Notes: a model not told the origin generated them from the letters alone. Shown: positions 15,642 to 32,000, numbered from the stretch's first letter. The stretch is 32,000 nucleotides of DNA from Propionibacterium ruminifibrarum (GCF_900289195.1 NZ_OMOH01000003.1:326697-358696); one strand, 5' to 3'. Numbers and translations are program-made.

Positions 15642-15719
15642 ATATCCTGTAGGAACTAACCCTATGGTTCGGGCCGCTGGGCCCTCAACGATGAGCACAA
15701 CCATGAGATGGGAGAGACA

Positions 15720-17492: not shown

Positions 17493-17682
17493 GCGATGGA
17501 TGTGGCTGGGCAGGATCGTGATCAGGCGGTTCGGTGTCCGGAGCCAACCGTGGTGGTCGCGGGTCTGCTGCCGGATGGATCGCAACGGCAGGCCTCTGGT
17601 CGATCGCCGATAGGTGTCGCCTTGTGCCCCATGGATGCGCGAGGGGCTGTAGACAGATGAGGAATTACTGGCGTTAGCGTCC

Positions 17683-17725
17683 TATATGATCTATGATGTG
17701 GCATATCTGATCGACGATGACGTCC
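17683..17725 (+). promoter_or_regulatory. AT-rich tandem TATGAT(C/G) motif, site A
   Basis: TATATGATCTATGAT (17683-17697) is identical to 31959-31973. Downstream TGATCG-N3-ATGACGTCC parallels TGATCG-N4-ATGACGTCC at site B. Confidence 0.5.
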
Positions 17726-18022
17726 TGATCGGAGGGACATATGCACACGACGGATGCATGGCGCATCGGGTGCACGACATCGCCCCATGCGCACGCTGGG
17801 GATGGCCAGGTTGCTGACCGGATGGTTCTTGGTCCTGGGCCCCACCTGCTGAATCGCAGCACGCGAGTCGGGCTCGGCGAGGCAGACACCGTGGTGTGCT
17901 CCGCGTCTCAGAAAAGATGGGGCCATGCGCTCTGAAGCGCCATGGCCTCGTTCACACCAGTCGCCGAAACGGGCGGCGGGTTCACCAAGTTTTAGTTCAG
18001 CTATGTGACAAGGAGGTCCATC

Positions 18023-19402: not shown

Positions 19403-19437
19403 ATCATGGAGAATATCTGACAAGGAGGATTGGAAAG

Positions 19438-20220
19438 ATGAAAGAGTATCAGAAGGCTGTATTCCCAGATCGTCACACGGCCGTTGTGAGTGGTGCGGGA
19501 GCACCTCGAGGGATCGCCCGCAAGACTGCCCACAGGCTAGCCGCCGAGGGCTGGGACATCGTGGTTGTCGATCTTTCCGACAAGGTGTTGGAGTTCGGGG
19601 ATGAACTTGCCCGGGAATATCCTGAGCAAGACTCCCTGGCAATCCAGCTCGACATCTCTGACGAGAATCAGGTGAAAAATGCCTTCGCTCGGATCAAATC
19701 GGAGATGCCGCCCGTGGTTGGTCTTGCAAATATCGCGGGAATTGCCTGTCCTGTGCCGTTGCTCGAACTGGACGCCGCGCTCTTCGACAAGGTTCTGGCG
19801 GTCAACTGCCGCGGCACGATGTTGATGATGAAGTACGCGGCTGAGCATATGAAAGAATATGGGATCGGACGTATCGTCAACTTCTCGTCCATTACTGCTC
19901 TGGATGGCGGAGGCACTTTCTCGAAATTCGCATATGCGGCGGCAAAGGCTGGGGTTCTTGGCATTACCAAGGGTGGTGCTCGAGAACTCGGACCCTACGG
20001 CATTACAACCAATGCGGTTCTGCCCGGTCCGATCGACACCGACATCATGGGCGGTAAGCTCACGGACGAGCGCAAGAAGCAGATGTCCTCGAACATTCCA
20101 GTGGGTCGTGTCGGCCAGCCCGAGGAGATTGCTGCCGTGGTGTCCTTCCTCCTTTCTGCTGACGCCTCGTTCGTCAATGGCGTCTCGCTGAATGTTGACG
20201 GTGGTAAGCAGATGCACTGA
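19438..20220 (+). CDS. Short-chain dehydrogenase/reductase (SDR)
   Basis: AAGGAGG RBS before ATG 19438. Gly-rich VVSGAGAPRGIARK, NFSS, YAAAK (YxxxK) and PGPIDT motifs are present. Confidence 0.85.
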   Translation: MKEYQKAVFPDRHTAVVSGAGAPRGIARKTAHRLAAEGWDIVVVDLSDKVLEFGDELAREYPEQDSLAIQLDISDENQVKNAFARIKSEMPPVVGLANIAGIACPVPLLELDAALFDKVLAVNCRGTMLMMKYAAEHMKEYGIGRIVNFSSITALDGGGTFSKFAYAAAKAGVLGITKGGARELGPYGITTNAVLPGPIDTDIMGGKLTDERKKQMSSNIPVGRVGQPEEIAAVVSFLLSADASFVNGVSLNVDGGKQMH

Positions 20221-20229
20221 GTGGTATCT

Positions 20230-20265
20230 GGGTGGCGGGTCTTGCCTCAATAGTGCCCGCCACCC
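20230..20265 (+). terminator. Intra-operon stem-loop between the SDR and rhmD
   Basis: GGGTGGCGGG (20230-20239) pairs perfectly with CCCGCCACCC (20256-20265). The loop is 16 nt. Confidence 0.4.
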
Positions 20266-20294
20266 GGGGTACCTGAGAAACAGGAGGAGGGATC

Positions 20295-21503
20295 ATGACA
20301 CTTCCGACGATCACGGATATCCGTGCTTATTTCATGGGCGGAGCGAGTTCTTCGAGTGGCGGCCAAGGAGGTGGTGATTATCACGATCAAGGATCTGGGC
20401 ACTGGATTGACGATCACATCGCCACTCCGATGAGCAAGTATCCGCAATACGAACAGTCTCGTCAATCATTTGGCATAAACGTGCTTGGTACGCTTGTGGT
20501 TGAGGTCGAGGCAAGTGATGGGACGATTGGGTTCGCTATTTCTACGGCGGGCTTGATAGGCTGTTTCATAGCCGAGCATCATCTATCCAGGTTCCTCATC
20601 GGTCGGCGCGTTGATGACATCAAATTGATTCACGATCAGATGACCAACGCCACGCATTTCTATTCCGGTGGTGGTGGCGTTGTCATCAACACGATCTCAT
20701 GCATCGACTTGGCGCTGTGGGATTTGTTCGGCAAGGTTGTGCAGCAGCCCGTGTACAGCCTGCTGGGCGGTGCGGTGCGAGATGAGATTCAGTTCTATGC
20801 TACTGGTTCCCGTCCGGACTTGGCACGCGAGATGGGCTTCATTGGTGGCAAGATACCCACGCACTACGGACCGCATGACGGGGATGCGGGAATTCGGGCA
20901 GAGGTGGAGCGGGTCAAGAGGTTCAGGGGTCTGGTGGGGCCAGATTTCTGGCTCATGTTTGACTGCTGGATGAGTCAGGATGTCAATTATGCTGTCAAAC
21001 TTGCCCATGCAGTGGCTCCGTTCGGCGTGAAGTGGCTGGAAGAATCGTTCCCGGCTGCGCAATATGAGAGTTATGCTGCTTTGAAACGGCAGATGCCACC
21101 AGGGATGATGGTCACCTCTGGTGAACACACTGGAAACCTTGTCGCGTTCCGAACGTTGAGTGAAACAGGTATCGACGTCCTGCAGCCTGATGTGGGATGG
21201 TGCGGTGGTCTCACCTCGCTCGTGGAGATCGCGGCGATTGCGAAATCAAAAGGGCAACTTGTGGTGCCGCACGGTTCCTCCGTCTACTCCCACCATGCCG
21301 TGATCACGTTCGTGAACACTCCGTTCAGTGAATTTTTGATGACGAGCCCGGGTGCCGATGAGATCAGGCCCCAGTTCGATCCCCTCCTCGTCAATGAACC
21401 CGTTCCAGTTGACGGGCGGATCAGCAAAGCGGAACTCACGAAACCTGGCTTCGGAGTGGACCTCAATCGCGCATGCCCGCTTGAAAGGCCATTTGTGCAC
21501 TGA
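20295..21503 (+). CDS. rhmD: L-rhamnonate dehydratase (enolase superfamily)
   Basis: 402 aa. Long stretches ([84 protein letters not shown]) match my recollection of E. coli RhmD/YfaW nearly residue for residue. AGGAGGAGGG RBS is present. Confidence 0.9.
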
Positions 21504-21505
21504 CC

Positions 21506-22351
21506 ATGGAGAAGCTGATGTCAACTGAAACGAGTCACGTTCCCCTTAACCGATTGAAAGAACGCCTTCGGGTTGGCGATGAACCTCAGCTGGGGTTGTG
21601 GCTGAGCAGTGGCTCACCGGCAATGACGGAGATCGCTGCGGGTGCTGATTTTGACTGGGGGCTCATCGACGGCGAGCACGGGCCCAACGGGATCGAAAGT
21701 CTCCTTGCCCAACTCCGTGCTATCGCTCCTCATCGAACGGCGCCGATTGTACGCCCCGCTGAGACGAGCCGGGTACTTATCAAGCAGATTCTCGACATTG
21801 GGGCACAGAACCTGCTGCTGCCGATGGTTGACTCCCGAGAAGACGCCGAGATGGCTGTCGCGAGTACTAGGTATCCGCCCCGGGGGACGAGGGGAGTGGG
21901 AGCGTCCATTGCCCGAGCAGGCCAGTGGGGCAGGATCAAGAATTACATGATGGAGACCGAAGATCAGCTCTGTGTGATTCTTCAAGTGGAAACTCGCGAG
22001 GGACTGGCCCACCTTGATGAGATAGTGCAGGTTGAGGGTGTTGACGGTGTCTTCATCGGCCCTGCTGACCTCGGCGCCGCGCTGGGGAGTCCCCCCATCG
22101 AGGAGCTCAACTCCATCGTCTGCGAATGTCTGTCCAAGATCCGCAGGGCTGGTCTCATCGCGGGATCGATCGCGTTGGAGGAGGCCACGGCGCGCACTTA
22201 CCTTGAAGCCGGGGCAAATCTTCTTGCGATTGCTTCTGACACTGATTTGCTTGTGCACTCCCTTGATGACTGCAAGAGCAGATTTGCCGATGTCACCACG
22301 ACTCGTGATTCACGTCGAGCTGGCTCAGGAAATAAAAGCGAGAAGGGCTGA
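21506..22351 (+). CDS. rhmA: 2-keto-3-deoxy-L-rhamnonate aldolase (HpcH/HpaI family)
   Basis: LKERLR.G..Q.GLWLSS, DW.LIDGEH.PN, IKQ.LDIGAQ.LL.PMVD, ATRYPP.G.RGVGAS and VEG(I/V)DGVFIGPADL match RhmA/YfaU as I recall it. ATG 21518 (GGAG 6 nt upstream) is an alternative start. Confidence 0.85.
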   Translation: MEKLMSTETSHVPLNRLKERLRVGDEPQLGLWLSSGSPAMTEIAAGADFDWGLIDGEHGPNGIESLLAQLRAIAPHRTAPIVRPAETSRVLIKQILDIGAQNLLLPMVDSREDAEMAVASTRYPPRGTRGVGASIARAGQWGRIKNYMMETEDQLCVILQVETREGLAHLDEIVQVEGVDGVFIGPADLGAALGSPPIEELNSIVCECLSKIRRAGLIAGSIALEEATARTYLEAGANLLAIASDTDLLVHSLDDCKSRFADVTTTRDSRRAGSGNKSEKG

Positions 22352-22375
22352 TGTGAATGCTGGGAAGAGCTACTA

Positions 22376-23185
22376 TCAGGTGTCCTGGGGGATCATTCGG
22401 CGTGAGACCATCGCCAGATGGTGGGTCATGGCATGTATGGCTGCAGCCTTGTCGCCTGAACGCACGGCATCGAAGATCGTCTGGTGTTCCCCGATCGCCG
22501 TGGGGGCATCGACCTTGCCCGTCCCACTCGTCTGCCGCATCAAATGAACGCTGAAACCCAAGGAGTTCACAGATCTGTTGATGTACCTGTTGCCGCAGTG
22601 ATTCAGGATCGTCTGGTGGAAGTCCCAGTCGCGATGGTAATAGTTCCAGATCGCCGCTCGGTCACTCATTGCGCCTTCCGCATCGAGCCTGTCTGCTGCT
22701 TCAATGTTGGCGGCAAAAGATGTTTCGAGGTCTGCGACCAGTCCTGGGAGATTTCTGCTCATCGCACGGTCGAGCGCGCTCGTCTCCATGATGAGCCTGG
22801 CCTCAATCAGCTCGGACATCTGCGCCGCTGACATCGGCGGGGCGACCCGATAACCGCGGTTCGCCATGCGCCGCACCAGTCCCGTGTCCTCGAGCCTGGC
22901 CAAGGCCTCCCTCACTGGTGTCTGCGACACCGCGAGATAGCGCGCCAGTCCATCGATCGTGAGCGGCGAGTTCGGTTCGAAGGACCCTGACGTGAGCATG
23001 TCCAGCAGAGCGTCGTAGACGTCGTCGCGTAATCCTCGCGGCCGGATGGGCCTCAGCTGGGGCATCTCTAGGTCGGGGCTGCTGCTCATGGGCCGGATCA
23101 TATCCAGCTGTTCAGGAACCAAGCTGTCTGCGCGCTGTGCCCGGACTGTTGCCCACGATTCCGCGCTGGCCAGAACCCAACTCAT
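22376..23185 (-). CDS. GntR/FadR-family transcriptional regulator
   Basis: HTH LTIDGLARYLAVSQTPVREALARLEDTGLVRRMANRGYRV plus a helical FCD-type C-terminus. The start is uncertain: in-frame ATGs at 23185, 23101, 23089 and 23065 all lack a strong SD. The gene is convergent with rhmA, 24 nt apart. Confidence 0.8.
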   Translation of the reverse strand: MSWVLASAESWATVRAQRADSLVPEQLDMIRPMSSSPDLEMPQLRPIRPRGLRDDVYDALLDMLTSGSFEPNSPLTIDGLARYLAVSQTPVREALARLEDTGLVRRMANRGYRVAPPMSAAQMSELIEARLIMETSALDRAMSRNLPGLVADLETSFAANIEAADRLDAEGAMSDRAAIWNYYHRDWDFHQTILNHCGNRYINRSVNSLGFSVHLMRQTSGTGKVDAPTAIGEHQTIFDAVRSGDKAAAIHAMTHHLAMVSRRMIPQDT

Positions 23186-23219
23186 TACGAGTCCGCGGGC
23201 CGGACTGCGGCGCGACGCC

Positions 23220-23369
23220 TCAAGCGGCGGTCGTCAGTTCCGGTCCGCCGGGAGCCGTGCCGCTGAGTATGTCCGTGCGGAAAAGGGGGAGGACCACACC
23301 GATGAAGGTGACCAGGGCGGCGAACAGCACGATCACTGAAGAACTCCTCTGCTGTACGAGGGCGGGCAT
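23220..23369 (-). CDS. Tentative 49-aa single-TM small protein
   Basis: MPALVQQRSSSVIVLFAALVTFIGVVLPLFRTDILSGTAPGGPELTTAA. One clear hydrophobic helix. About 78% G/C at third codon positions. The stop lies 35 nt upstream of the GntR ORF on the same strand. The RBS is weak and I recognise no homology. Confidence 0.3.
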   Translation of the reverse strand: MPALVQQRSSSVIVLFAALVTFIGVVLPLFRTDILSGTAPGGPELTTAA

Positions 23370-23537
23370 AGGACCCGCACCTGACGAAGCCACAGCGCAC
23401 TCCGTCGTGTGGAGCAACGATAGATTCACCGGCAGCCGATGAGCCAGGCCGTGACCGGGGTGTCGCCCCATCGTGCCCCGGGCACTGGGCCCAGCGCCCG
23501 GTATGGTTGATGGCGACGCATCGGGGGAGGAGGTCTC

Positions 23538-24374
23538 ATGGCGGGTACCCGCGAGGGGCACTCTTCCGGCCCCAGGGCCAGGCAGTACGCCATCGCTCAG
23601 GCGGTCATAGCCAAGGGCAAGGCGACCGTCGAGGAACTCGCCGATCTGACCGGCGTCTCCGCCATGACGATCTACCGCGACATCGCGGTGCTGGAGCAGA
23701 GCAACATCGTCCAACTCCACAACGGCACTGTCGTCGCGGTCGCAAGCGGCTTGCACGAGGCCGATGCGGTCTTCCGGCTGGAACAGGCCTCTGACGAGAA
23801 GCGACTCATCGCTGCCGAGGCCGCCACACTCGTCGCCAATGGTTCCTCGGTCATGCTCGACGACTCGAGTTCATCGGTCTGGCTGCTTCGTGCCCTGGCA
23901 GATCTGTCATCGCTGACGATCGTCACGAACTCCCTGCTCGTCGCGGGCGAGGTCACCGAGAACCGCTTGGCGCAACTGATCATGACCGGCGGCGAGTACC
24001 GGGCCTGGGCCCACGCCCTGATGGGACCGACCACCGTGCAGAACATCACGGCGATGCACGCGGACTACTGCTTCCTTTCCACCTCCGGTATCTCGTCGAT
24101 GGCCTGCTTCCACCCCTACCAAGAGGTGGCCGAGGTCAAGGCCGCCATGCTGCGCTCCAGCGAGGTACGGGTGCTGCTCATCGACAACAGCAAGTTCAAC
24201 CGTCGTGCGTTGTTCAAGTTCGCCGAGCTGAGTGACTTCGACCACGTCATCGTCGACGACAAGGCGCCCGAGGCTGATCTCAGGCACCTCGAGGATGCCG
24301 GTGTTGCCGTTACCGTGGCCGCGTCCCGGGGGCGACGCGGCAGGCAGACGGCCGTTACCGCGCACCGCGGCTGA
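23538..24374 (+). CDS. DeoR/GlpR-family transcriptional regulator
   Basis: GGAGGAGG RBS. N-terminal HTH ATVEELADLTGVSAMTIYRDIAVLEQSNIV plus a C-terminal DeoR-type sugar-phosphate-binding domain (TIVTNSL, DYCFLSTSGIS). Confidence 0.85.
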   Translation: MAGTREGHSSGPRARQYAIAQAVIAKGKATVEELADLTGVSAMTIYRDIAVLEQSNIVQLHNGTVVAVASGLHEADAVFRLEQASDEKRLIAAEAATLVANGSSVMLDDSSSSVWLLRALADLSSLTIVTNSLLVAGEVTENRLAQLIMTGGEYRAWAHALMGPTTVQNITAMHADYCFLSTSGISSMACFHPYQEVAEVKAAMLRSSEVRVLLIDNSKFNRRALFKFAELSDFDHVIVDDKAPEADLRHLEDAGVAVTVAASRGRRGRQTAVTAHRG

Positions 24375-24458
24375 TGGCAGACGCCCCGAGGCCCTCACCG
24401 GGCCGGCGTTTCCTCTCGTCGTGACTCAATTTATGCGCCTCCCACAAGGCATTTAACA

Positions 24459-24472
24459 TATATGATGATATT
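24459..24472 (+). promoter_or_regulatory. AT-rich TATATGATGATAT motif, site C (weaker relative of sites A and B)
   Basis: It shares TATATGAT with sites A and B. It lies in a 37%-GC pocket 85 nt after the DeoR stop and 526 nt upstream of the membrane-protein gene. Confidence 0.35.
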
Positions 24473-24984
24473 TGAAGCATTCTCAAAGGTGACATACCTC
24501 AGCCAAGCTGTTACTGTTCAGTCATGGAACAGGTCATGGCGGACCGCTCCGGGGGTGTGATGCTCGCCAGGGCGACAACTGGCGTACAGGGCGGCGTCTT
24601 CCCGGCAGTCAGGGCCAACGGGCTTCCGAGTGGCGATCGTTCGCTGAGAATTACCTTGCCAACAAGGATTTTAGGGTTGCCTGAGGTGCTCGGTCCGCGG
24701 TTCTCGTGTGCCGCCGCTGATGGGGGTGGGTTGAACTCGGAGTCATGGCCGGCCGTTGTTCCATGGGGCATGACGCCTCGTAACAGTATTTGTGATGATG
24801 GTATCGCTGATGCTGTTAATGACGTGTTCTCGTGGGTGGGGCTCGTTACGCGCATCGCACTGCCCACCCCGGTAAGCACCCCGTGACGGATTCAGTCGGC
24901 GCGTCACACCTCACGTGGTGAGCCCGCGCCACGCCTGACACCGGGCGCAACCCTGTCCACCACTGAACGAACAAAGGAACAAGG

Positions 24985-26064
24985 ATGTTCACAACCTCCC
25001 TGGGGGTCTTCCTCTTCGGCCTGCTGGCCGCCATTGCCGGCGGAACCGTCGGCGCTGCGATCGGCGGCAACTACGCGTTCGTGCTCGTCGGTTTCTGCGT
25101 ACTCGCCTCATGGGGCATGTTCGCCGCCACCGGCAGCACCTTCGGCTTCGACTACCTGGCCTTCGGCCCCTTCATGGGGCCGCACATCGCCTTCGCAGGC
25201 GGCGTCGCGGCGGCCATCTACGCCCGCTACAAGGGACACTTCGATGACGGCAAGGACGTCAACTCCCCGCTGGCCGGCCTCGGCAAGCCCAGCGTCCTGA
25301 TCGTCGGCGCCTGCTTCGGCGTCTTCGGCTACCTCTTGCAGATCGGTGTCAGCCACGTCCCGTGGTTCGGTTCCCACACCGACTCGGTCGCCTTCACCGT
25401 CCTGTGCTCCGGCCTGCTCGCTCGTATCGTCTTCGGCGGTGTTCCGGGCAAGGGCCTGTTCAAGGGATCGCTGCACAACCCCGAGGCCTTCCACGCCGAC
25501 GCCACCAGCTTCCCGGCCAAGATCAAGCCCGGTCCCAACGGACGCTGGCTCGAGTGGCAGGAGAAGCCCTCGCAGCTCATCACCATCGGCTCGCTGTTCG
25601 GTGTCTTCGCGGGAGGCGCCGCGCTCTTCCTGGCCGCCAACGTCGGTGCCCATCTCACCGAGAAGGGTTTCGCCAACAACCTTGCGGCAGCGAACGCCAA
25701 CACCTTCGGTTTCGGCATCTCGGCCATCATCATCCTGTTCCTCATCACCAACCGGAACATGCCCGTTCAGCACCACGTGACGAACATCGCAGGCCTTGCC
25801 GCCGTCCAGTTCTTCCCCGTCCTCATGGGGGAGAGCTTCGCCACCTTCACCTGGACCGCCACCTCGGCCTGGGACTCGCACACCTGGTTGATGGCCTTCG
25901 TCGCGATCCTCATCGCGGGTTTCTTCGGTGTCGTCGCGGCAGCGCTCGGCGAGTTCGCCGCCCGCCTCTGGTACAACCGCGGTACGAGCCACATCGATCC
26001 TCCGGCCGCGTGCATCTGGATCAGCAACACCCTCGTCGTCTCACTGGCGGCGCTGCTGTCCTGA
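24985..26064 (+). CDS. Unclassified polytopic membrane protein (~10 predicted TM segments), candidate transporter
   Basis: AAAGGAACAAGG RBS. 359 aa with about 10 hydrophobic segments and one ~45-aa hydrophilic loop (PGKGLFKGSLHNPEAFHADATSFPAKIKPGPNGRWLEWQEKPSQ). I recognise no MFS, ABC, PTS or SSS motif. First gene of the kinase/phosphatase operon. Confidence 0.75.
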   Translation: MFTTSLGVFLFGLLAAIAGGTVGAAIGGNYAFVLVGFCVLASWGMFAATGSTFGFDYLAFGPFMGPHIAFAGGVAAAIYARYKGHFDDGKDVNSPLAGLGKPSVLIVGACFGVFGYLLQIGVSHVPWFGSHTDSVAFTVLCSGLLARIVFGGVPGKGLFKGSLHNPEAFHADATSFPAKIKPGPNGRWLEWQEKPSQLITIGSLFGVFAGGAALFLAANVGAHLTEKGFANNLAAANANTFGFGISAIIILFLITNRNMPVQHHVTNIAGLAAVQFFPVLMGESFATFTWTATSAWDSHTWLMAFVAILIAGFFGVVAAALGEFAARLWYNRGTSHIDPPAACIWISNTLVVSLAALLS

Positions 26065-26107
26065 GGGCCCGCGGCCCGATCGCCACGAAGGAAGAAGGGA
26101 ACCACGC

Positions 26108-26965
26108 ATGAGTCACGGTCTCGTGAGCAGCCCCACCGAGTTCGCCAGTGCCTACATCTTCGACCTCGACGGCACGATCTACCTCGGCAGCCAGCTGCTG
26201 CCCGGTGCCAAACGCTTGATCGAGGAATTGCGCCGACGCCGGATCCCGGTCCGCTTCCTGTCGAACAATCCCACCAGGGATCCCGACATGTACGTGAAGA
26301 AGCTGACCGGTCTGGGGCTGCCCACGGGGCTCGACGACATCTGCAACACCGTCGTGACCACCGTCCGCTGGCTCAAGCAGAACCACCCGGACGCCGTCCT
26401 GTTCCCGATCGCCGAGGAGCCCCTGTGCCGCGCCCTCACCGAGGCCGGCTTCGAGTTGAGCGATGACCCGTCCCGGATCGACATCGTCATCGCCTCCTAC
26501 GACCGCACCTTCGATTACCACAAACTCCAGGTCGCCTTCGACGCCATCTGGTTCCACAAACGGGCCATCCTCGTGCAGACCAACCCCGACCGCTTCTGCC
26601 CCTTCCCCGGCGGGCGCGGCGAGCCCGACTGCGCGGCCATCACCGCCGCCATCGAGGCCTGCACCGGTACCACGTGCCAGGTGAACTTCGGCAAGCCCTC
26701 GCCCGTGATGCTCACCGAGGCCCTGTCCGGCCTGGACGTCGACGTGGCCGACTGCGTCATGGTCGGTGATCGCCTCCAGACCGACATCCAGATGGCGCTC
26801 GACGCCGGGATGAAATCGGCGTGCGTGCTCACCGGCGAGGCATCGCCGGCCGACATCGCCGCCCTCGACGAGGCCCACAGGCCCACCTACGTTCTCGACC
26901 GCGTCGACCGCCTCATCCCTGCCCGGTACTGGGGTGAACTCGGCTGGTCGGAGGACGACCTCTGA
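26108..26965 (+). CDS. HAD-IIA family sugar-phosphate phosphatase (NagD/AraL-like)
   Basis: Motif I FDLDGTIY, FLSNN, GKPSP, and VGDRLQTDI (the GD..TDI typical of HAD-IIA). I set the start at ATG 26108 (AAGGAAGAAGGGA upstream); the track ORF start at 25928 overlaps the preceding gene. Confidence 0.85.
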   Translation: MSHGLVSSPTEFASAYIFDLDGTIYLGSQLLPGAKRLIEELRRRRIPVRFLSNNPTRDPDMYVKKLTGLGLPTGLDDICNTVVTTVRWLKQNHPDAVLFPIAEEPLCRALTEAGFELSDDPSRIDIVIASYDRTFDYHKLQVAFDAIWFHKRAILVQTNPDRFCPFPGGRGEPDCAAITAAIEACTGTTCQVNFGKPSPVMLTEALSGLDVDVADCVMVGDRLQTDIQMALDAGMKSACVLTGEASPADIAALDEAHRPTYVLDRVDRLIPARYWGELGWSEDDL

Positions 26966-27024
26966 AAACCGCAGGCTCCCAACGGGGGAGCGCTGCAAGT
27001 CAACGTGCTCAAAGGAGAGTTCCC

Positions 27025-28584
27025 ATGACCGACAACGGCCCTTACGTGCTGGGTATCGACTACGGCACCGAGTCCTGCCGCGTGGCCATCTGCGATCTGC
27101 AAGGCCGCCCGATCACCTTCGCCGCCACGCCCTACAAGACCACTCACCCGCACCCGGGCTGGGCGGAGCAGAACCCGGAGGACTGGTGGAAGGCATTGCA
27201 GGCCTCCACTCACAAGGCCCTCGAGAGCTCGGGTATCCCGGCTTCCGCCATCGCCGGCATCTCCTACGACGCCACGACCTTGACGATGGTCGCCCTGGAC
27301 GCCAGGGGTGTGGAGCTCCGCCCGGCCATCATGTGGATGGACGTGCGCGCCACCGAGCAGGCCGAACGGGCGAACTCGTCCGGGTCAGTGGCCCGTCTCT
27401 ACAACGGAGGTGGCCATTCCCCGGCGACGGCCGAGTGGTACCCCTTCAAGGCCGCCTGGTTGCGCGAGAACGAGCCCGAGACCTATGCCAAGGCAGCGCA
27501 CCTGGTCGACGCGCCCGACTGGGTGACCTACAAGCTGACCGGCGAGTGGACCACCAACATCAACTCGGCCGCCATCCGCATGTACCACAACCGTGACAAG
27601 GGCGGCTGGCCGAAGGACTTCTACGAGACCATCGGCTGCGGAGACGTCTTCGACAAGATCCCCGAACGCGTCCTCGACCTGGGCGCCCCGGTCGGTGAGC
27701 TCGGCACCATCGCCGCCCAGCTGCTCGGCCTGCGTCCCGGTATCCCGGTCGCCCAGGGCATGGCCGACGCGTGGGCGGGCCAGATCGGTCTGGGCGTCCT
27801 GCAGCCCGGGCAGATGGCTCTCATCACCGGCTCCTCCCACGTCCTCACGGGCCAGTCGGACAAGGAGATCCATGGCGAGGGCTTCTTCGGCGCCTACACG
27901 GACGGCGTCATGCCCGGCCAGTACACGGTCGAGGGCTCGCAGGTGTCCACCGGCTCGGTGCTCAAGTGGTTCCGCGACAATTTCGCCCGTGACGTCATCC
28001 AGGCGGCTGAGCGCGTCGGCCTCAACCCCTACGACGTGCTCAACGAGCAGTCAAGGAGCATCCGGCCCGGTTCGGACGGGCTCATCATCAATGAGTACTT
28101 CCAGGGCAACCGCACGCCGTACACGGACTCGAAGGCCCGTGGCATCGTCTGGGGTCTGTCGCTGGCCCACACCCCGGCTCACGTCTATCACGCGATTCAG
28201 GAGTCGGTCTGCTACGGGAATGCGCACAACCTGCGCGCCATGAAGGCCGCCGGTTTCGAGGTCAGCCGCATGGTGGCCTGCGGTGGCGCGACCAAGAGCC
28301 GTGACTGGATGCAGATGCACGCGGACGTCTCGGGCGTGCCGATCGCCCTGACCGAGGTCGGGGACGCGGTGGTGCTCGGAACCTGCATGCTTGCCGCGGT
28401 GGGTGCGGGGCTGTACAAGGATCTTCCCGAGGCGGCCGCCTCGATGGTCCACGAGATCGACGTCCTGGAGCCCGACCCCGAGCTGCACGAGGAATACGCG
28501 TTCTACGTGGACGCCTACTGCGACACGTACCCCAAGTTGCGGTCGATGATCCATGACATGGTGGACCACGAGGCGCAAAGGTGA
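27025..28584 (+). CDS. FGGY-family carbohydrate kinase (pentulose/tetritol-kinase-like)
   Basis: AAAGGAGAG RBS. LGIDYGTES, GWAEQNPEDWW and CGGATKSRDWMQMHADV are FGGY motifs. At 519 aa it is larger than typical xylulokinases. Confidence 0.85.
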   Translation: MTDNGPYVLGIDYGTESCRVAICDLQGRPITFAATPYKTTHPHPGWAEQNPEDWWKALQASTHKALESSGIPASAIAGISYDATTLTMVALDARGVELRPAIMWMDVRATEQAERANSSGSVARLYNGGGHSPATAEWYPFKAAWLRENEPETYAKAAHLVDAPDWVTYKLTGEWTTNINSAAIRMYHNRDKGGWPKDFYETIGCGDVFDKIPERVLDLGAPVGELGTIAAQLLGLRPGIPVAQGMADAWAGQIGLGVLQPGQMALITGSSHVLTGQSDKEIHGEGFFGAYTDGVMPGQYTVEGSQVSTGSVLKWFRDNFARDVIQAAERVGLNPYDVLNEQSRSIRPGSDGLIINEYFQGNRTPYTDSKARGIVWGLSLAHTPAHVYHAIQESVCYGNAHNLRAMKAAGFEVSRMVACGGATKSRDWMQMHADVSGVPIALTEVGDAVVLGTCMLAAVGAGLYKDLPEAAASMVHEIDVLEPDPELHEEYAFYVDAYCDTYPKLRSMIHDMVDHEAQR

Positions 28585-28606
28585 GGAGTCTGGAGAGAAA
28601 GGGACA

Positions 28607-29968
28607 ATGATGTCAGATCTGATCGAGCAGGCACTGGCGAGCGCCGACGACACCGACAGGGTCGTGATGGGCGATGGGGTGCTCGCGGCGACGGGCCCCA
28701 TGTTCAGGGAACTCTTCGGTCAGGCCAGGGGTGTCATCATCGCCGATGAGAACACCTGGGCGGCGGCCGGTGAGCAGGTGAGCGCATCGCTCAAGGACGC
28801 AGGCGTCGAACTCGCCGAGCCGTACGTCTTCCCGGGCAGCCCCAGCGTCTACGCCAAGTACGAGAACGTCGAGTTGCTGCGGGAATTCCTCGCGCCACTC
28901 GATGCGAATGCCGTCGTCGTCGGCTCGGGGACGCTCAACGACCTCGTGAAGAGGGCCAGTGACGAGCTGGGGCGGCGTTATCTCGTCGTGTGCACCGCGG
29001 CGTCGATGGACGGCTATGCGGCGTTCGGCGCCTCGCTGTCGGTCGACGGGTTCAAGACGACGTTGACCTGCCGCGCGCCCCAGGGCCTCGTCGTCGACCT
29101 GCCGACCCTGGCAGCGGCGCCTCAGCGCTGCACCGCCACCGGCGTCGGCGATCTCATCGAGAAGATCCCAGCCGGAGCGGACTGGATCCTCGCCGATGAA
29201 CTGGGCATCGAACCCATCGACCAGGGCTCCTGGGACCTGGCCCAGGGACGGTTGGAGGCCGCCATCAGCGACCCCCAGGGTCTGGTCGACCGTGAACCCG
29301 GCGCCTTCGTCGCCCTTGCCGAGGGATTGGTGCTCTCGGGCCTGTCGATGCAGAGATACCGCATCAGCTCCCGCCCGGCCTCCGGAGCCGGCCACCTCTT
29401 CTCACACGTCTGGGAGATGGAGCATCTTGGCATGGACGAGGACCCGCCGCTGACCCACGGCTTCAAGGTGGGGCTGGGCACGCTGGCCACCCTTGCGCTG
29501 TGGCAGAACGCCGTCGACCTCGACGTCTCGAGCATCGACACCGAGGAAGTCGTCGCCCGGTGGCGCAGCCGCGAGGACACCGAGGCCTTCGTGCGTTCCT
29601 GGTTCACCGGGAACATGGTGGAGCCGGCCGTCAAGCAGACACTCGACAAGTACCTCACCGCTGACGAACTGCGCGGACGCATCGAGCTGATCAAGGACAG
29701 GTGGCCCACGATCACGGAGCGGACCCGGGCGCAGATCATCCCGCCGGAACGGGCCGAGGCGATTCTCAAGCAGGTGGGGGCCTACTGGCACCCGCAGCAG
29801 ATCGGCCTGAGCCGTCAGCGCTTCCGGGACACCTATCTGCGCTGCCGCATGATCCGCAGCCGTTACACCCTGCCCGATGCCCTGTTCGAGCTCGGCGTGC
29901 TCGATGAACAGGTCGACCGATTGTTTGCGCCCGATGGCTTCTGGGGGCGGCGTCCCTGGGCCGAGTGA
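28607..29968 (+). CDS. Glycerol-1-phosphate-dehydrogenase-like NAD(P)-dependent dehydrogenase (AraM/EgsA-like, dehydroquinate-synthase-like fold)
   Basis: VVGSGTLNDLVK, VCTAASMDGYA, TGVGDLIEK and GHLFSHVWEMEH (metal-ligand His residues), with a C-terminal IRSRYTLPD. GGAGAGAAAGGGA RBS before ATG 28607. Confidence 0.7.
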   Translation: MMSDLIEQALASADDTDRVVMGDGVLAATGPMFRELFGQARGVIIADENTWAAAGEQVSASLKDAGVELAEPYVFPGSPSVYAKYENVELLREFLAPLDANAVVVGSGTLNDLVKRASDELGRRYLVVCTAASMDGYAAFGASLSVDGFKTTLTCRAPQGLVVDLPTLAAAPQRCTATGVGDLIEKIPAGADWILADELGIEPIDQGSWDLAQGRLEAAISDPQGLVDREPGAFVALAEGLVLSGLSMQRYRISSRPASGAGHLFSHVWEMEHLGMDEDPPLTHGFKVGLGTLATLALWQNAVDLDVSSIDTEEVVARWRSREDTEAFVRSWFTGNMVEPAVKQTLDKYLTADELRGRIELIKDRWPTITERTRAQIIPPERAEAILKQVGAYWHPQQIGLSRQRFRDTYLRCRMIRSRYTLPDALFELGVLDEQVDRLFAPDGFWGRRPWAE

Positions 29969-30087
29969 CTGGCACGCCGGGTGCCGGGCACGTCATCGGC
30001 GGGCCGGAGGGTCGATCCGCCCGGCCCGGTACCCGGATGACCGAGCAGCTCGGCAACCCTGCCCCTGTTTCTCGACGAGGAGGAAAC

Positions 30088-31755
30088 ATGACTGAGAAAT
30101 ATGTAGTGGGACTGGATTTCGGTACCCTGTCCGGCCGAGCCGCCGTGGTTCGCGTCAGTGACGGTGAGATGGTCGGCACGGCGGTCTGCGAGTACCCGCA
30201 TGCCGTGATGGACACGAGACTGACCGCGGCGAACGGGCAGGAACTGCCACCAGACTTCGCGCTGCAGGACCCGAGCGACTACCTCACCGCACTCTACGAG
30301 ACGGTCCCCGCGGCCGTGGCCGACTCGGGCGTCGAACCGGCCGACATCATCGGCGTGGGCCTGGACTTCACCTCGGCGACCGTCGTGGCAGCCACCGCCG
30401 AGGGCACCCCGGTGTGCGAGCTGCCGCAGTTCGCGGACAACCCGCACGCCTGGGTGAAGCTGTGGAAGCACCATGGTGCCGTCGAGCAGGCCCGGCGCAT
30501 CGTCGATGTCGCCACTGAGCGAGGCGAGGAGTGGCTGAGCCGCTATGGCGGCGTGCTCAACTCCGAGATGCTGCTGCCCAAGGTCGCCGAGACCCTGGAG
30601 TGTGCTCCCGAGGTCTATGCGGCCACGGACGTCTTCTGCGAGGCCATGGACTGGCTCACCTGGCACCTGACCGGCCGGTTGACCTTCTCAGCGGGCTCGT
30701 CCGGCTACAAACGCATCCTCCAGGACGGCCGGTACCCGTCCAGGGACTTCCTGCGCCAGGTGAACCCGGGTCTGGAGAACGTCTACGACGAGAAGATGAA
30801 CGCACCGGTCCTGCCCCTCGGCCACAACGTCGGTGGCCTGCTGCCGGAGGTGGCGTCCAGACTCGGGTTGCCGGCCGGCATCGCAGTGGCCAGCGGGAAC
30901 ATCGACGCCCATGTCACCGGCCCGGCGGTGCAGGGCGTCGAGGACGGTGTCATGACGGCCATCATGGGAACGTCGGTCTGCTACCTGCTCTCATGGCCGA
31001 CACCTGCTCCGGTAGCCGGCATCTTCGGGATCGTCGATGGGGGGATCGTCGACGGCTCCTGGGGTTTCGAGGCGGGCCAGACCGCAGCCGGCGACATCTT
31101 CGCCTGGTTCGTCGACACCTGCGTCCCCGCCCGGTACCAGGCCGAGGCCGACGAGCTGGGCATCCCGGTGCACGAACTGCTCACCCGCAAGTGCGAGCAT
31201 CAGCCGGTCGGCGCCCACGGACTGGTGGCCTTGGACTGGCACAACGGCAACCGCTCAACCCTCATGGACGCACAGTTGTCCGGCCTCATGCTGGGCACGA
31301 GTCTCACCACGACGCCCGAGGACCAGTATCGAGCCCTGCTCGAGTCCTGCGCCTTCGGGGCCAGGACGATCATCGAGGCCTTCGTCTCGGCGGGGATCGA
31401 CATCGAAGAACTCGTCGTGGCCGGCGGCCTGACCAGGAACCGCCTGTTCATGCAGATCCTTGCCGACGTCTGCCGTCGTCCCCTCTCGGTCGGTACCGCC
31501 GAGCAGCCCGGCGCCCTCGGCTCGGCCATCTTCGCCACCGTCGCGGCAGGGGAGTATCCCGATGTCAAGGCTGCTTCGGCTGCCATGGGGGCGAAGAAGG
31601 AGGGCGTCTACCTGCCCGACGAGGCCCGCGCGGATCAGTATGACCTGCTGTATGCGGAGTACAGCAGGCTGTACGACTACTTCGGCCGAGGCGGCAACGA
31701 GGTCATGCACCGGTTGAAGAGCCTCCGGGCGCAGGCCCGGGCAGCTTCTGCATAG
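30088..31755 (+). CDS. Ribulokinase-like FGGY kinase (AraB-like)
   Basis: GAGGAGGAAAC directly precedes ATG 30088. VGLDFGTLSGR, the 555-aa length and GGLTRNRLFMQILADV are typical of AraB-type ribulokinases. I do not use the symbol because araA and araD are absent. Confidence 0.8.
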   Translation: MTEKYVVGLDFGTLSGRAAVVRVSDGEMVGTAVCEYPHAVMDTRLTAANGQELPPDFALQDPSDYLTALYETVPAAVADSGVEPADIIGVGLDFTSATVVAATAEGTPVCELPQFADNPHAWVKLWKHHGAVEQARRIVDVATERGEEWLSRYGGVLNSEMLLPKVAETLECAPEVYAATDVFCEAMDWLTWHLTGRLTFSAGSSGYKRILQDGRYPSRDFLRQVNPGLENVYDEKMNAPVLPLGHNVGGLLPEVASRLGLPAGIAVASGNIDAHVTGPAVQGVEDGVMTAIMGTSVCYLLSWPTPAPVAGIFGIVDGGIVDGSWGFEAGQTAAGDIFAWFVDTCVPARYQAEADELGIPVHELLTRKCEHQPVGAHGLVALDWHNGNRSTLMDAQLSGLMLGTSLTTTPEDQYRALLESCAFGARTIIEAFVSAGIDIEELVVAGGLTRNRLFMQILADVCRRPLSVGTAEQPGALGSAIFATVAAGEYPDVKAASAAMGAKKEGVYLPDEARADQYDLLYAEYSRLYDYFGRGGNEVMHRLKSLRAQARAASA

Positions 31756-31797: not shown

Positions 31798-31828
31798 CTG
31801 GGCCCCCGTCATCAAGGCGGGGGCCCAG
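31798..31828 (+). terminator. Terminator-like hairpin after the ribulokinase-like gene
   Basis: CTGGGCCCCCG pairs perfectly with CGGGGGCCCAG (11 bp), with a 9-nt loop. A second, weaker hairpin CTGGCC..GGCCAG precedes it at 31764-31786. Confidence 0.55.
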
Positions 31829-31958
31829 CCATGTCGTTGAGCAGCGCACTGTCGATGGACTCTGAAGCTCCGGCCGGTCCTGTACCGCTGCCACTGAACG
31901 AAGAACTGAGCCGGTGCCATGGCGATCTGGGCTCGCCGGAAGCTATGGACAAATAGAA

Positions 31959-31988
31959 TATATGATCTATGATCGTCTCATGACGTCC
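31959..31988 (+). promoter_or_regulatory. AT-rich tandem TATGATC motif, site B
   Basis: TA-TATGATC-TATGATC-GTCTC-ATGACGTCC. The first 15 nt are identical to site A (17683-17697). It lies after the operon terminator, at the window edge. Confidence 0.5.
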
Positions 31989-32000
31989 GACCAACGGTGA

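Follow-up and report, generated by a model that had tools for sequence, protein, structure and literature searches.

The window analysed in this work (the whole stretch of DNA, 32,000 nt) carries a DeoR-type regulator followed by five co-directional genes, which we tentatively interpret as an operon under DeoR control that degrades small polyols, erythritol and/or ribitol being the likeliest substrates, via D-polyol phosphates rather than free ketoses; we hold this interpretation with clearly less than even confidence. The gene arrangement is far beyond chance. Dozens of genomes show the genes in this order, again with short gaps. If the interpretation is true, the cluster could account for the erythritol and ribitol pathways of propionibacteria, which so far lack assigned genes.

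Gene families and operon structure

Profile searches matched the families that the first-pass annotation had described for the regulator and the five ORFs behind it (Table 1); the intergenic gaps it gave (43, 59, 22 and 119 nt) are right for the chosen start codons, which fit the N-termini of the homologues. The DeoR gene is probably its own transcription unit. The hairpin 3' of araB, which like the 610-nt gap behind DeoR the first-pass annotation had not mentioned, is the likely terminator of the operon; it has no T-tract and was therefore missed by the consensus terminator scan. No araD start was found in the last 245 nt of the window, after araB.

Table 1. Features of the locus, in positions of the window
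Feature	Position	Strand	Basis or remark
Dak-family kinase, upstream of the locus	15708-17420		
DeoR/GlpR-family transcriptional regulator	23538-24374	+	HTH_DeoR + DeoRC
Non-coding gap, 610 nt	24375-24984	.	site of RpiB-like isomerase gene in most relatives
Operator/promoter motif TAACAGTATTTGTGA, palindrome-like	24781-24795	.	match to conserved pattern
DUF7973 polytopic membrane protein	24985-26064	+	PF25928 in all homologues
HAD-IIA phosphatase (AraL/NagD/YutF subfamily)	26108-26965	+	Hydrolase_6 + Hydrolase_like; TIGR01460
FGGY kinase (FGGY1), 519 aa, subfamily without assignment	27025-28584	+	FGGY_N + FGGY_C
AraM-like/G1PDH-like dehydrogenase, 453 aa	28607-29968	+	Fe-ADH_2
AraB ribulokinase, 555 aa	30088-31755	+	PRK04123, TIGR01234
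Hairpin CTGGGCCCCCG-N9-CGGGGGCCCAG	31798-31828	+	11-nt arms, 100% complementary

The regulator scores below the cut-off of every NCBIfam equivalog, its weak matches including the L-fucose operon activator. The presence counts given here come from 61 well-flanked genomic loci of Propionibacteriaceae and Actinomycetaceae; 39 of these have DeoR upstream of the cluster, and in 50 an RpiB-like isomerase gene stands between DeoR and DUF7973. Of 59 loci, 46 have the pattern T(A/C)ACA-N5-9-TGT(T/G)A at a distance of 50-105 nt 5' of the RpiB-like gene (expected per region: 0.04), and TAACAGTATTTGTGA is the sole match to the TGTTA form of this pattern in the 32-kb window. Neither tblastn nor blastx detected an RpiB remnant in the 610-nt gap, an Rfam search of the gap returned no match, and the ORF 24524-24886 within it reveals no family match and no codon bias. 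To judge from these sequence comparisons, the RpiB-like isomerase is part of the ancestral cluster and has been deleted in the window, the gap retaining the conserved operator. The RpiB-like gene, at 165 bits, comes close to the cut-off of 168 for ordinary ribose-5-P isomerases of actinobacteria.

The membrane protein found no match in the Pfam and NCBIfam copies searched. Its homologues all carry PF25928 (DUF7973), which gives the earlier "unclassified permease" a family name. The family is small (531 representative clusters); the AlphaFold2 model of the protein is all-helical (pLDDT 91), and a fold search of the PDB gave no match at E <= 0.001. We presume it to be a channel or permease for polyols or other solutes. 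The HAD-IIA gene directly follows DUF7973 in 69 loci, at a median distance of 60 nt, and the two are the most constant gene pair among the loci; the HAD-IIA product scores 104 bits on TIGR01460 (cut-off: 100), with pNPPases, YutF and the M. tuberculosis glycerol-3-phosphate phosphatase (4i9f) as PDB relatives.

The 555-aa kinase is identified by its scores as a true AraB ribulokinase (PRK04123: 690 bits, cut-off: 428; TIGR01234: 644 bits, cut-off: 583; B. halodurans ribulokinase 3qdk: 527 bits). FGGY1 remains under every NCBIfam equivalog cut-off (best XylB, score: 280, cut-off: 380; ribulokinase, score: 276, cut-off: 428), and its homologues, 66-92% identical, are spread over many actinomycete genera. 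With the dehydrogenase, its neighbor in 48 loci at a median distance of 28 nt, it forms the tightest enzyme pair of the cluster, and we regard it as a candidate polyol kinase.

For the dehydrogenase, both sequence and fold (TM 0.81) identified B. subtilis AraM (9H4X) as the best PDB match, and the AraB/AraL/AraM-like trio noticed earlier is real. The family profile matches AraM at 2e-52, archaeal G1PDH at ~1e-27 and GldA across the N-terminal part only. On the G1PDH equivalog the protein scores 135 bits (cut-off: 413), it contains an insertion of ~80 residues relative to G1PDH, and the haloarchaeal glycolaldehyde-reductase model yields merely 32 bits; NCBI sources label the family sn-glycerol-1-phosphate dehydrogenase. 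Residues D135, H263, H267 and H284 are invariant. The retained metal ligands and C-terminal IR-R-T motif common to archaeal G1PDH, together with the closeness to AraM, a true G1PDH, suggest a phosphorylated substrate, and the enzyme is a candidate polyol-phosphate dehydrogenase.

Conservation and genomic neighborhood

The gene set proved to be conserved as a unit in two actinobacterial families and further genera with operon-like spacing. Besides the RpiB-like isomerase (50/61), the well-flanked loci contain HAD (56/61), the dehydrogenase (47/61), the FGGY kinase (45/61), AraB (40/61), AraD (23/61) and transketolase (21/61). The first-pass annotation had suggested that kinase, dehydrogenase and phosphatase form a self-contained module, which is too narrow, for the ancestral cluster adds the isomerase and often transketolase. 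It had also reported that AraA and AraD are missing: AraA is indeed absent from the window and from 90 of the 90 loci examined, whereas the absence of AraD is peculiar to the lineage of the window, AraD being encoded directly 3' of AraB in 24 related loci. By score, this class II family gene is a true L-ribulose-5-P 4-epimerase (389 bits, cut-off: 251). The recurrence of the trio in a high-GC lineage is likewise genuine, but not new: in 2015 the P. freudenreichii copy was annotated, by bioinformatics only, as a "second arabinose locus (araB, araL, araM)" (PMC4437456).

Upstream of the cluster, Propionibacterium and Acidipropionibacterium loci have a Dak-family kinase gene, as does a Rubrobacter plasmid cluster, and P. 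freudenreichii has a TIM gene there as well. FGGY1 and the dehydrogenase also stay paired in Agrococcus, Ornithinibacter and Ruania, where transport falls to other systems, among them one of the DUF2291/CUT2 ABC type; the Agrococcus pair adjoins a Zn-ADH and is not accompanied by HAD or DUF7973, and in Ornithinibacter HAD is on the opposite strand. The Micropruina loci have the order RpiB-DUF7973-HAD-dehydrogenase without a kinase, with GlpABC and a GpsA-like gene adjoining, and GpsA-like, GlpABC and GlpP-like genes recur near the cluster. A FucA-like aldolase is present in the extended cluster of Cutibacterium sp. V947, and DeoC-type aldolases adjoin FGGY1 in Agrococcus and Rubrobacter. Gene combinations differ from lineage to lineage, which suggests parallel branches, not one linear pathway.

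A possible polyol-phosphate route and its competitors

The predicted route, with its substrates, regiochemistry and direction of flux, would run as follows. A polyol would enter through DUF7973, and FGGY1 would phosphorylate one of its terminal hydroxyls to form a D-polyol omega-phosphate whose carbon beside the phosphate is configured as in sn-glycerol-1-phosphate; the AraM-like dehydrogenase would use NAD(P)+ to oxidize the compound at this carbon, yielding a ketose-1-phosphate (D-erythritol-4-P to L-erythrulose-1-P, D-ribitol-5-P to L-ribulose-1-P). In a C5 branch, HAD-IIA could release L-ribulose, AraB rephosphorylate it at C5 and AraD, encoded elsewhere in this genome and found beside AraB in many relatives, produce D-xylulose-5-P; in a C4 branch, TIM-type and RpiB-type isomerases could convert L-erythrulose-1-P to erythrose-4-P. 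Transketolase, within the cluster in many relatives, would feed both products into central metabolism. For ribitol, the phosphate swap proposed in the first-pass annotation (kinase, dehydrogenase, phosphatase, kinase) is stereochemically coherent.

Holten and Fromm (1961) reportedly purified from Propionibacterium pentosaceum an erythritol kinase (EC 2.7.1.27) with D-erythritol-4-phosphate as product, for which no gene is known, and Wawszkiewicz, whose paper is cited in PMC10733421 and PMC4437456, is said to have described L-erythrulose-1-phosphate as an intermediate in the same species. DerI is an RpiB-family enzyme, and the NCBIfam DerI model matches the RpiB-like genes of the cluster. LerI belongs to the TIM family (PMC10733421). 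All P. freudenreichii strains tested ferment erythritol and adonitol (ribitol), neither pathway could be reconstructed, and the cluster is present in all of them, while the L-arabinose and L-arabitol phenotypes are strain-variable (PMC4437456). Fermentation with no assigned pathway in strains that all carry the cluster argues for polyol catabolism, as do the operon-like spacing of the conserved unit in 61 loci and further genera, the conserved operator, and the persistence of the FGGY1-dehydrogenase pair where transporters differ; the RpiB-like, AraD, transketolase and Dak/TIM neighbors, with AraA absent, point to the pentose-phosphate pathway, not to arabinose. Kinase-then-dehydrogenase polyol routes composed of glycerol-pathway paralogues are a precedent (PMC3599248, PMC12542623).

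Several observations weaken this reading. The nearest characterised relative of the dehydrogenase uses DHAP/G1P, not larger polyol phosphates, at an identity of only ~22%; a catabolic operon with a phosphatase beside a kinase might run a futile cycle, and two ATP are spent on the phosphate swap; the combinations vary between lineages; the RpiB-like gene is almost an ordinary ribose-5-P isomerase by score; and the isomerase and AraD, both required by the model, are missing from the window.

The recurrent glycerol-phosphate genes also count against polyol catabolism, and they fit an explanation that we consider unlikely: the AraM-like protein would be a true sn-glycerol-1-phosphate dehydrogenase, HAD-IIA a G1P phosphatase and DUF7973 a glycerol channel, making glycerol from DHAP to dispose of NADH or, run backwards, recovering sn-G1P from the head groups of lipids or from lipoteichoic acid. 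The sn-1 enantiomer would separate the flux from the GlpK/G3P pool, with the two kinases and RpiB as co-regulated pentulose enzymes outside the route. The closeness to AraM, the NCBI family name, the glycerol-3-phosphate phosphatase among the HAD-IIA relatives, the constancy of the DUF7973-HAD pair and the kinase-free Micropruina loci beside GlpABC agree with it, and so does the B. subtilis ara operon, where the AraL and AraM families occur together. However, the dehydrogenase falls short of the G1PDH cut-off and bears the insertion, its tightest partner is FGGY1 and not HAD (as Agrococcus and Ornithinibacter illustrate), and glycerol handling leaves the RpiB, transketolase and AraBD associations unexplained. 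One protein annotated as sn-G1PDH has already turned out otherwise (PMC9700705).

The kinase-free DUF7973-HAD arrangement of Micropruina likewise speaks against polyol catabolism and would be more natural in polyol production and export, a reading that we think rather improbable. A sugar phosphate from the pentose-phosphate pathway would pass through RpiB, be reduced by the AraM-like enzyme, dephosphorylated by HAD, the constant partner of the membrane protein, and released via DUF7973. The polyol would be an electron sink or a compatible solute, with the kinases permitting re-uptake. Micropruina has isomerase, channel, phosphatase and dehydrogenase in a single operon, and the erythritol-4-P dehydrogenase and phosphatase of such a route in lactic acid bacteria lack identified proteins (PMC12542623). 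Against this, the operon includes one or two kinases in most loci, whose activity would cycle the product; catabolic operons are where DeoR-type repressors and AraB/AraD/transketolase are typically found; and propionibacteria are known as consumers, not producers, of erythritol and ribitol (PMC4437456).

We see little likelihood, too, that the locus is an accessory L-arabinose locus with spare ribulokinases, its AraL and AraM being dispensable counterparts of the B. subtilis araL and araM products. The published P. freudenreichii annotation, AraB above its equivalog cut-offs, AraD beside it in 24 loci and AraM as the structure closest to the dehydrogenase speak for this view; against it, AraA is missing throughout, P. 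freudenreichii has canonical araA, araB and araD with an arabinose transporter at a separate locus, its arabinose phenotype varies while the cluster does not, and FGGY1, RpiB, transketolase and DUF7973 are all unexplained. Finally, a ketopentose-1-phosphate aldolase route like fucose catabolism or the haloarchaeal pentose-bisphosphate pathway (a kinase forming the ketose-1-phosphate or HAD trimming a bisphosphate, a class II aldolase yielding DHAP and glycolaldehyde or formaldehyde, and the AraM-like enzyme as aldehyde reductase, the diol leaving via DUF7973) is very improbable: it can invoke a haloarchaeal HAD that is an RuBP 5-phosphatase, a FucA homologue that is an Ru1P aldolase and an annotated sn-G1PDH that is a glycolaldehyde reductase (PMC9700705), the cleavage of L-erythrulose-1-P to DHAP and formaldehyde proposed for P. 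pentosaceum (PMC10733421), the DeoR-family regulator with its weak fucose match and the scattered FucA-like and DeoC-type genes, but the class II gene beside AraB scores as an epimerase and not as an aldolase, the operon of the window has no aldolase, and the dehydrogenase keeps G1PDH-specific C-terminal motifs and scores poorly as a glycolaldehyde reductase.

Comparison with known systems

As the first-pass annotation supposed, our literature search found no characterised pathway of this composition. The B. subtilis araABDLMNPQ-abfA operon likewise combines a ribulokinase, a HAD-IIA phosphatase and a G1PDH-family dehydrogenase in one sugar operon; the cluster differs in lacking AraA, the AraNPQ ABC transporter and AbfA, in adding the FGGY kinase, DUF7973, the RpiB-like isomerase and transketolase, in its DeoR-type regulator instead of AraR, and in a dehydrogenase ~60 residues longer than AraM (the ~22% identity being over the structural alignment). 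For P. pentosaceum, of the same family, the predicted kinase and dehydrogenase products fit those reportedly observed; the reported fate of L-erythrulose-1-P there is aldol cleavage, whereas the cluster operon has no aldolase.

The erythritol pathway of Brucella and Sinorhizobium (EryA kinase, EryB dehydrogenase, EryC, EryH/TpiA2, EryI/RpiB) also starts with phosphorylation followed by oxidation beside the phosphate, employs enzymes from glycerol-pathway families and reaches erythrose-4-P by RpiB-type and TIM-type isomerases, and one kinase can take erythritol, ribitol and L-arabitol (PMC3599248, PMC12542623). Its dehydrogenase EryB is an FAD-dependent GlpD homologue, in contrast to the soluble G1PDH-family enzyme of the cluster; such a replacement implies the opposite enantiomer (D-erythritol-4-P), with EryC not needed. 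The cluster has in addition the HAD phosphatase and AraB, and a different transporter. The tetritol pathways of Mycobacterium smegmatis (EltD, LerK, LerI, DerK, DerI) share the intermediates L-erythrulose-1-P and D-erythrulose-4-P and the TIM- and RpiB-family isomerases (PMC10733421), and the Dak-family kinase upstream in the window and in P. freudenreichii is a further likeness. There, however, the free polyol is oxidized first and the ketose phosphorylated later, while the cluster operon has no polyol dehydrogenase and instead a G1PDH-like enzyme for which a phosphate ester is the probable substrate. The haloarchaeal non-carboxylating pentose bisphosphate pathway (PMC9700705) resembles the cluster in its HAD phosphatase, class II aldolase-family protein and annotated sn-G1PDH, but it starts from nucleosides via ribose-1,5-bisphosphate without FGGY kinases, and its "G1PDH", the glycolaldehyde reductase, is merely a distant relative of the cluster dehydrogenase.

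The operon and its relatives

Six co-directional genes, all with a strong third-position GC bias, occupy 23538-31755 of the window (see table). The gaps of 43, 59, 22 and 119 nt reported in the first-pass annotation for the five genes following the DeoR regulator are correct, and the start codons chosen match the N-termini of homologues; points absent from that annotation are a 610-nt gap between DeoR and the membrane protein gene, a hairpin downstream of araB, and an end-of-window stretch without araD. A consensus terminator scan gave none in any intergenic gap among the five genes, and the transcription unit probably extends from the membrane protein gene (DUF7973) through araB and ends at the hairpin. 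Just past the latter, the stretch 31946-32000 carries a promoter-like site TGGACA-16-TATGAT (10/12 matches) and an AT-rich segment aatatatgatctatgat, which resembles ATATATGATGAT at 24458 and ATTTGTGATGAT at 24788; the window stops before the next gene.

Features of the DeoR-linked operon and of the other modules in the window (scores in bits, with model cut-offs in brackets)
Feature	Position	Strand	Remarks
Large protein	in 2-5051		weak PL4 CBM-like match
WecG/TagA-family glycosyltransferase, SAICAR synthetase (purC), GATase_5 amidotransferase (purQ-like)	in 2-5051
SorC-type regulator	in 5115-11482	minus
MFS transporter	in 5115-11482
DUF1537 four-carbon acid-sugar kinase	in 5115-11482		D-threonate kinase model 191 (450)
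PdxA-family dehydrogenase	in 5115-11482		481 (470)
RpiB-family isomerase	in 5115-11482		35% identical to cluster-type RpiB
TIM-family isomerase	in 5115-11482
GntR/FCD regulator	in 11653-17420	minus
MFS transporter, xylose-isomerase-like TIM-barrel protein, PGDH_C-type dehydrogenase	in 11653-17420
Single-chain Dak1/Dak2 kinase	in 11653-17420		PRK14479, 666
MFS transporter	18005-19402		low-GC island
SDR	19399-20220		low-GC island
Enolase-superfamily dehydratase	20295-21503		low-GC island
HpcH/HpaI aldolase	21506-22351		low-GC island
Divergent GntR/FCD regulator	22376-23185	minus	low-GC island
DeoR regulator	23538-24374		HTH_DeoR, DeoRC
Membrane protein DUF7973	24985-26064		no match in local Pfam or NCBIfam copies
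HAD-IIA phosphatase	26108-26965		TIGR01460 104.2 (100.15); Hydrolase_6, Hydrolase_like
FGGY kinase FGGY1	27025-28584		519 aa; FGGY_N, FGGY_C; below all NCBIfam equivalog cut-offs
Fe-ADH_2 protein (dehydrogenase)	28607-29968		453 aa; curated G1PDH equivalog NF002022 not passed, 135 (413)
AraB	30088-31755		FGGY_N, FGGY_C; ribulokinase models passed clearly: PRK04123 690 (428), TIGR01234 644 (583)
Perfect 11-bp hairpin	31798-31828		3' of araB

The window proteins and other recurrent genes were mapped onto 79 genomic loci around DUF7973 homologues, 61 of them with enough flanking sequence. Among the latter we found the HAD-IIA phosphatase in 56, an RpiB-like isomerase in 50, the AraM-like dehydrogenase in 47, FGGY1 (the kinase without assigned specificity) in 45, AraB in 40, DeoR in 39, AraD in 23, transketolase in 21 and a GpsA-like dehydrogenase in 11. 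The genes most often run DeoR-RpiB-DUF7973-HAD-FGGY1-dehydrogenase-AraB, optionally accompanied by AraD, transketolase and the GpsA-like gene (median gaps: DUF7973-HAD 60 nt, HAD-FGGY1 73 nt, FGGY1-dehydrogenase 28 nt, dehydrogenase-AraB 77 nt, AraB-AraD 33 nt), and the RpiB-like gene is missing only from the P. australiense/acidifaciens group, which includes the window. The cluster is present in C. acnes, C. avidum, C. modestum, C. namnetense, P. freudenreichii, A. jensenii, A. thoenii and A. timonense (Acidipropionibacterium), as well as in oral Propionibacterium and many Actinomycetaceae. The gene set thus recurs as a conserved unit; it is a real, widespread, uncharacterised operon, and the original observation was sound. 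The idea of a self-contained module does not hold: the ancestral cluster included AraD and the RpiB-like isomerase, and through transketolase it is linked with the pentose-phosphate pathway. The coincidence of araB-, araL- and araM-type genes is real but not new, having already been noticed for P. freudenreichii (PMC4437456).

Beyond the range of DUF7973, FGGY1 and the dehydrogenase remain adjacent in Ruania alba (RpiB-HAD-FGGY1-dehydrogenase), in Agrococcus, where a DeoC-type aldolase and a Zn-ADH accompany them, and in Ornithinibacter, whose cluster also has RpiB and a DUF2291/CUT2 ABC transporter and carries HAD and GlpABC on the opposite strand. A Rubrobacter plasmid has both genes in one cluster, though not side by side, together with transketolase, aldolase, Zn-dehydrogenase, a Dak-family kinase, HAD-IIA and RpiB. 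Since gene combinations differ between lineages, the cluster suggests a branched set of steps rather than a single chain. Cutibacterium sp. V947 has an enlarged cluster (positions 3450-9850 of its locus), in which DeoR and the RpiB-like gene are separated by five further genes: a third FGGY kinase, a FucA-type class II aldolase, an AraD-type epimerase, a GlpP-like protein (G3P_antiterm) and a D-2-hydroxyacid-dehydrogenase-like protein, the last assigned by eye from the sequence.

The encoded proteins

The dehydrogenase has its closest PDB sequence match in 9H4X, the Ni-dependent sn-glycerol-1-phosphate dehydrogenase (G1PDH) AraM of B. subtilis (2e-31 alone, 2e-52 with the family profile), which is also the top Foldseek match (TM 0.81). 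Archaeal G1PDHs follow in the profile search at about 1e-27, C-terminal motif included, and glycerol dehydrogenases (GldA) align only across the N-terminal half; with its metal-binding Asp/His/His and G1PDH-type fold the protein is nearer to G1PDH than to glycerol dehydrogenase. D135, H263, H267 and H284 do not vary among 15 diverse homologues; AraM and the M. jannaschii G1PDH share with the dehydrogenase a C-terminal IR-R-(Y/W)-T motif, and an insertion of ~80 residues is specific to the family, for which 4993 hits were obtained. These features indicate an AraM-like enzyme that probably acts on a phosphate ester; it is not a demonstrated G1PDH, and interconversion of DHAP and sn-glycerol-1-phosphate (G1P) is a candidate activity.

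FGGY1 falls into no subfamily of known specificity (XylB: 280 bits, cut-off 380; ribulokinase: 276, cut-off 428; pentulose kinase: 244, cut-off 409; glycerol kinase: 166, cut-off 590). The best annotated matches among plasmid records are unnamed FGGY kinases, none of them characterised, located in other polyol-like clusters of Rubrobacter, Skermanella and Rhizobium. AraB, which has the same two domains, is a ribulokinase (PDB 3qdk, 527 bits, in addition to the models in the table). The HAD protein passes the HAD-IIA subfamily model and has the corresponding cap architecture (TIGR01460, Pfam).

AraA and AraD were both described as absent by the first-pass annotation. An E. coli AraA query (tblastn, E <= 1e-5) matched neither the window nor any of 90 related loci, most with about 8-10 kb of flank, and this part of the statement extends to all of them. 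The E. coli AraD query gave no match in the window, the last 245 nt of which contain no araD-like start, but it did match 25 related loci. By gene mapping, AraD lies directly 3' of AraB in 24 related loci, and the gene at this position scores 389 bits on the L-ribulose-5-P 4-epimerase model (cut-off 251). Thus, the absence of AraA is a property of the whole cluster family, whereas that of AraD concerns this lineage only.

DUF7973 (PF25928) is carried by all 388 of 388 homologues of the membrane protein, those with organism names coming mainly from Propionibacteriaceae and Actinomycetaceae. The gene is 96% identical to the Propionibacterium australiense copy, and window proteins share 90% clusters with P. 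ruminifibrarum, P. acidifaciens and a metagenome-assembled Propionibacteriaceae genome. Only 531 clusters, all of similar length, came out of an exhaustive profile search against 1.84 billion representatives, and attempts to place the family in a transporter superfamily by sequence libraries, profile search and fold search retrieved only its own small family. The all-helical AlphaFold2 model (alignment of 20 sequences; pLDDT 91, pTM 0.89) found no fold match at E <= 0.001 among 350,542 PDB chains, the best TM-score being 0.30 for a urea transporter, and judging from this model DUF7973 may represent a new membrane-protein fold. Among its invariant polar residues are H263-H264 and, near the C-terminus, the motif H336-x-D338-P-P-A. 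No mention of the family was found in the literature searched, and "permease" is a reasonable guess, not a finding.

The 610-nt gap and neighbouring modules

The 610-nt gap is poorly conserved even in comparison with P. australiense, only two short stretches being alike. Searches for an RpiB remnant (tblastn, blastx) and for an RNA element (Rfam) found no trace of either in the gap, and the ORF at 24524-24886 has no family match and no GC3 bias and is treated as non-coding. In other genomes a palindrome-like motif T(A/C)ACA-N5-9-TGT(T/G)A precedes the RpiB-like gene; 46 of 59 loci have it at a distance of 50-105 nt from the start codon (expected: 0.04 per region). The sole match of its TGTTA form in the 32-kb window, TAACAGTATTTGTGA at 24781-24795, lies 190 nt upstream of DUF7973, so that the putative promoter/operator has outlived the loss of the isomerase gene. 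The repeat ATATATGAT (24458, 24788 and about 31957) was dropped as an operator candidate, the TAACA-N5-TGTGA motif being much better supported.

Upstream of the operon, a low-GC island (17500-23400; 55-59% GC versus about 67% elsewhere) looks like a sugar-acid dehydratase pathway; a 192-aa ORF at its edge (17522-18100, minus strand) has no Pfam match and may be non-coding. The island is flanked by the Dak-family kinase on one side and by DeoR on the other, two genes that are direct or close neighbours in P. freudenreichii and Acidipropionibacterium. A Dak homologue also precedes DeoR in 10 related loci, the Rubrobacter plasmid cluster among them. P. australiense and P. acidifaciens have the island as well, which points to a probable horizontal gain by this lineage. 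The segment 11653-17420 is another four-carbon sugar or sugar-acid module, 5115-11482 is a probable tetronate (threonate/erythronate-type) operon, and 2-5051 contains housekeeping and cell-envelope genes unrelated to the operon.

A putative polyol-phosphate route and its alternatives

Fermentation of erythritol and ribitol is a textbook trait of dairy and skin propionibacteria, used in the biotyping of C. acnes, and to our knowledge the genes responsible have never been identified. Erythritol kinase (EC 2.7.1.27; product: D-erythritol-4-phosphate) was reportedly purified from P. pentosaceum (now Acidipropionibacterium acidipropionici) in 1961, and we know of no gene assigned to it. In P. freudenreichii the locus, annotated by bioinformatics only as a second arabinose locus (araB, araL, araM), is present in all 21 strains (Loux et al., PMC4437456), all strains ferment erythritol and adonitol (ribitol), and neither pathway could be reconstructed in that 2015 pan-genome study, the erythritol genes of Brucella and Sinorhizobium being absent (PMC4437456). 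An invariant, unexplained locus thus stands alongside two invariant, unexplained phenotypes, and the operon is the obvious candidate for the missing genes. One C. acnes proteomics paper, which groups "glycerol dehydrogenase and ribulokinase activity" among biofilm-lowered proteins, was too vague to be used as co-expression data.

The operon is probably of a polyol or pentulose catabolic kind, with two unusual recruits, the AraM-like dehydrogenase and a membrane protein without a PDB fold match. We tentatively read it as serving polyol-phosphate catabolism, the likeliest of the explanations considered. According to Fischer projections, the phosphate-adjacent carbon of polyol omega-phosphates of the D series is configured as in sn-G1P, so that D-erythritol-4-P and D-ribitol-5-P are the substrates to expect for a G1PDH-like enzyme. 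The former would be oxidized to D-3-tetrulose-4-P, i.e. L-erythrulose-1-P, a compound linked to erythritol catabolism in P. pentosaceum by work as cited in PMC4437456 and PMC10733421. In the ribitol branch, the kinase would yield D-ribitol-5-P, the dehydrogenase L-ribulose-1-P, the HAD phosphatase L-ribulose (the substrate of AraB), AraB L-ribulose-5-P and AraD D-xylulose-5-P, which would make sense of a cluster that has AraB, AraD and a phosphatase but no AraA. The phosphate would thereby move between the ends of the carbon chain, essentially the exchange envisaged by the first-pass annotation. Uptake would proceed through DUF7973, and by analogy with S. meliloti, where a single kinase handles erythritol, ribitol and L-arabitol (PMC3599248), it is plausible that one FGGY1 serves both the C4 and C5 branches. 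That non-lipid G1PDH-family enzymes are generally D-series (sn-G1P-like) polyol-phosphate dehydrogenases, and that the operon combines the EC 2.7.1.27 kinase and erythritol-phosphate dehydrogenase of propionibacteria with a ribitol phosphate-shift route and a new-fold uptake protein, is a bolder proposition, and rather unlikely to be correct as a whole.

Our caution reflects the candidate status of the enzymes, the RpiB-like gene, whose score (165 bits, cut-off 168) all but qualifies it as an ordinary actinobacterial ribose-5-P isomerase, DUF7973-HAD as the most constant pair of the cluster, and two observations on gene neighborhood. Firstly, genes of the glycerol-phosphate type are repeatedly found near the cluster (GpsA-like, GlpABC and, in Cutibacterium sp. 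V947, GlpP-like); a true G1P/glycerol valve would suit such neighbours and the AraM-like fold, and with the dehydrogenase far below the G1PDH equivalog cut-off we regard it as unlikely. Secondly, Micropruina loci (RpiB-DUF7973-HAD-dehydrogenase, adjoining GlpABC and a GpsA-like gene) have no kinase and would more easily fit a route that forms glycerol or a different polyol by reduction and dephosphorylation and then exports it; production and export is nonetheless improbable for the cluster at large, where FGGY1 and AraB are frequent. An accessory arabinose locus, to which AraB would belong, is similarly improbable: of the AraA/AraB/AraD set only AraB is found here, the canonical araA/araB/araD genes and transporter of P. 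freudenreichii sit at a different locus, and the L-arabinose and L-arabitol phenotypes differ among its strains with no genetic correlate (PMC4437456). A ketose-1-phosphate aldolase/aldehyde-reductase route, which recalls the haloarchaeal glycolaldehyde reductase annotated as sn-G1PDH and devoid of G1PDH activity (PMC9700705), is very improbable, and the remaining probability falls to explanations outside those considered.

For pathways that have been without genes for sixty years, the polyol-phosphate reading offers a concrete connection that can be tested. If the dehydrogenase takes polyol phosphates, many bacterial proteins automatically annotated as "sn-glycerol-1-phosphate dehydrogenase", annotations that feed arguments on archaeal-type lipids in bacteria, would need renaming; AraL and AraM in the B. 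subtilis ara operon would gain a testable explanation, and the DUF7973 family, with a fold unlike solved structures, its first functional context.

The Brucella-type erythritol operon differs in that its GlpD-like FAD dehydrogenase EryB and EryC epimerase are absent from the window operon, GlpD/GlpABC-like genes being only occasional neighbours of related loci. The product of Brucella EryA, L-erythritol-4-P, has the sn-G3P configuration in Fischer projection, which is consistent with EryB being a GlpD homologue. In other bacteria, TIM-family and RpiB-family isomerases turn L-erythrulose-1-P into erythrose-4-P (PMC10733421, PMC12542623); the RpiB/TIM pair at 5115-11482 resembles EryI/EryH and, by this analogy, could contribute the isomerase activities that the DeoR operon lacks.
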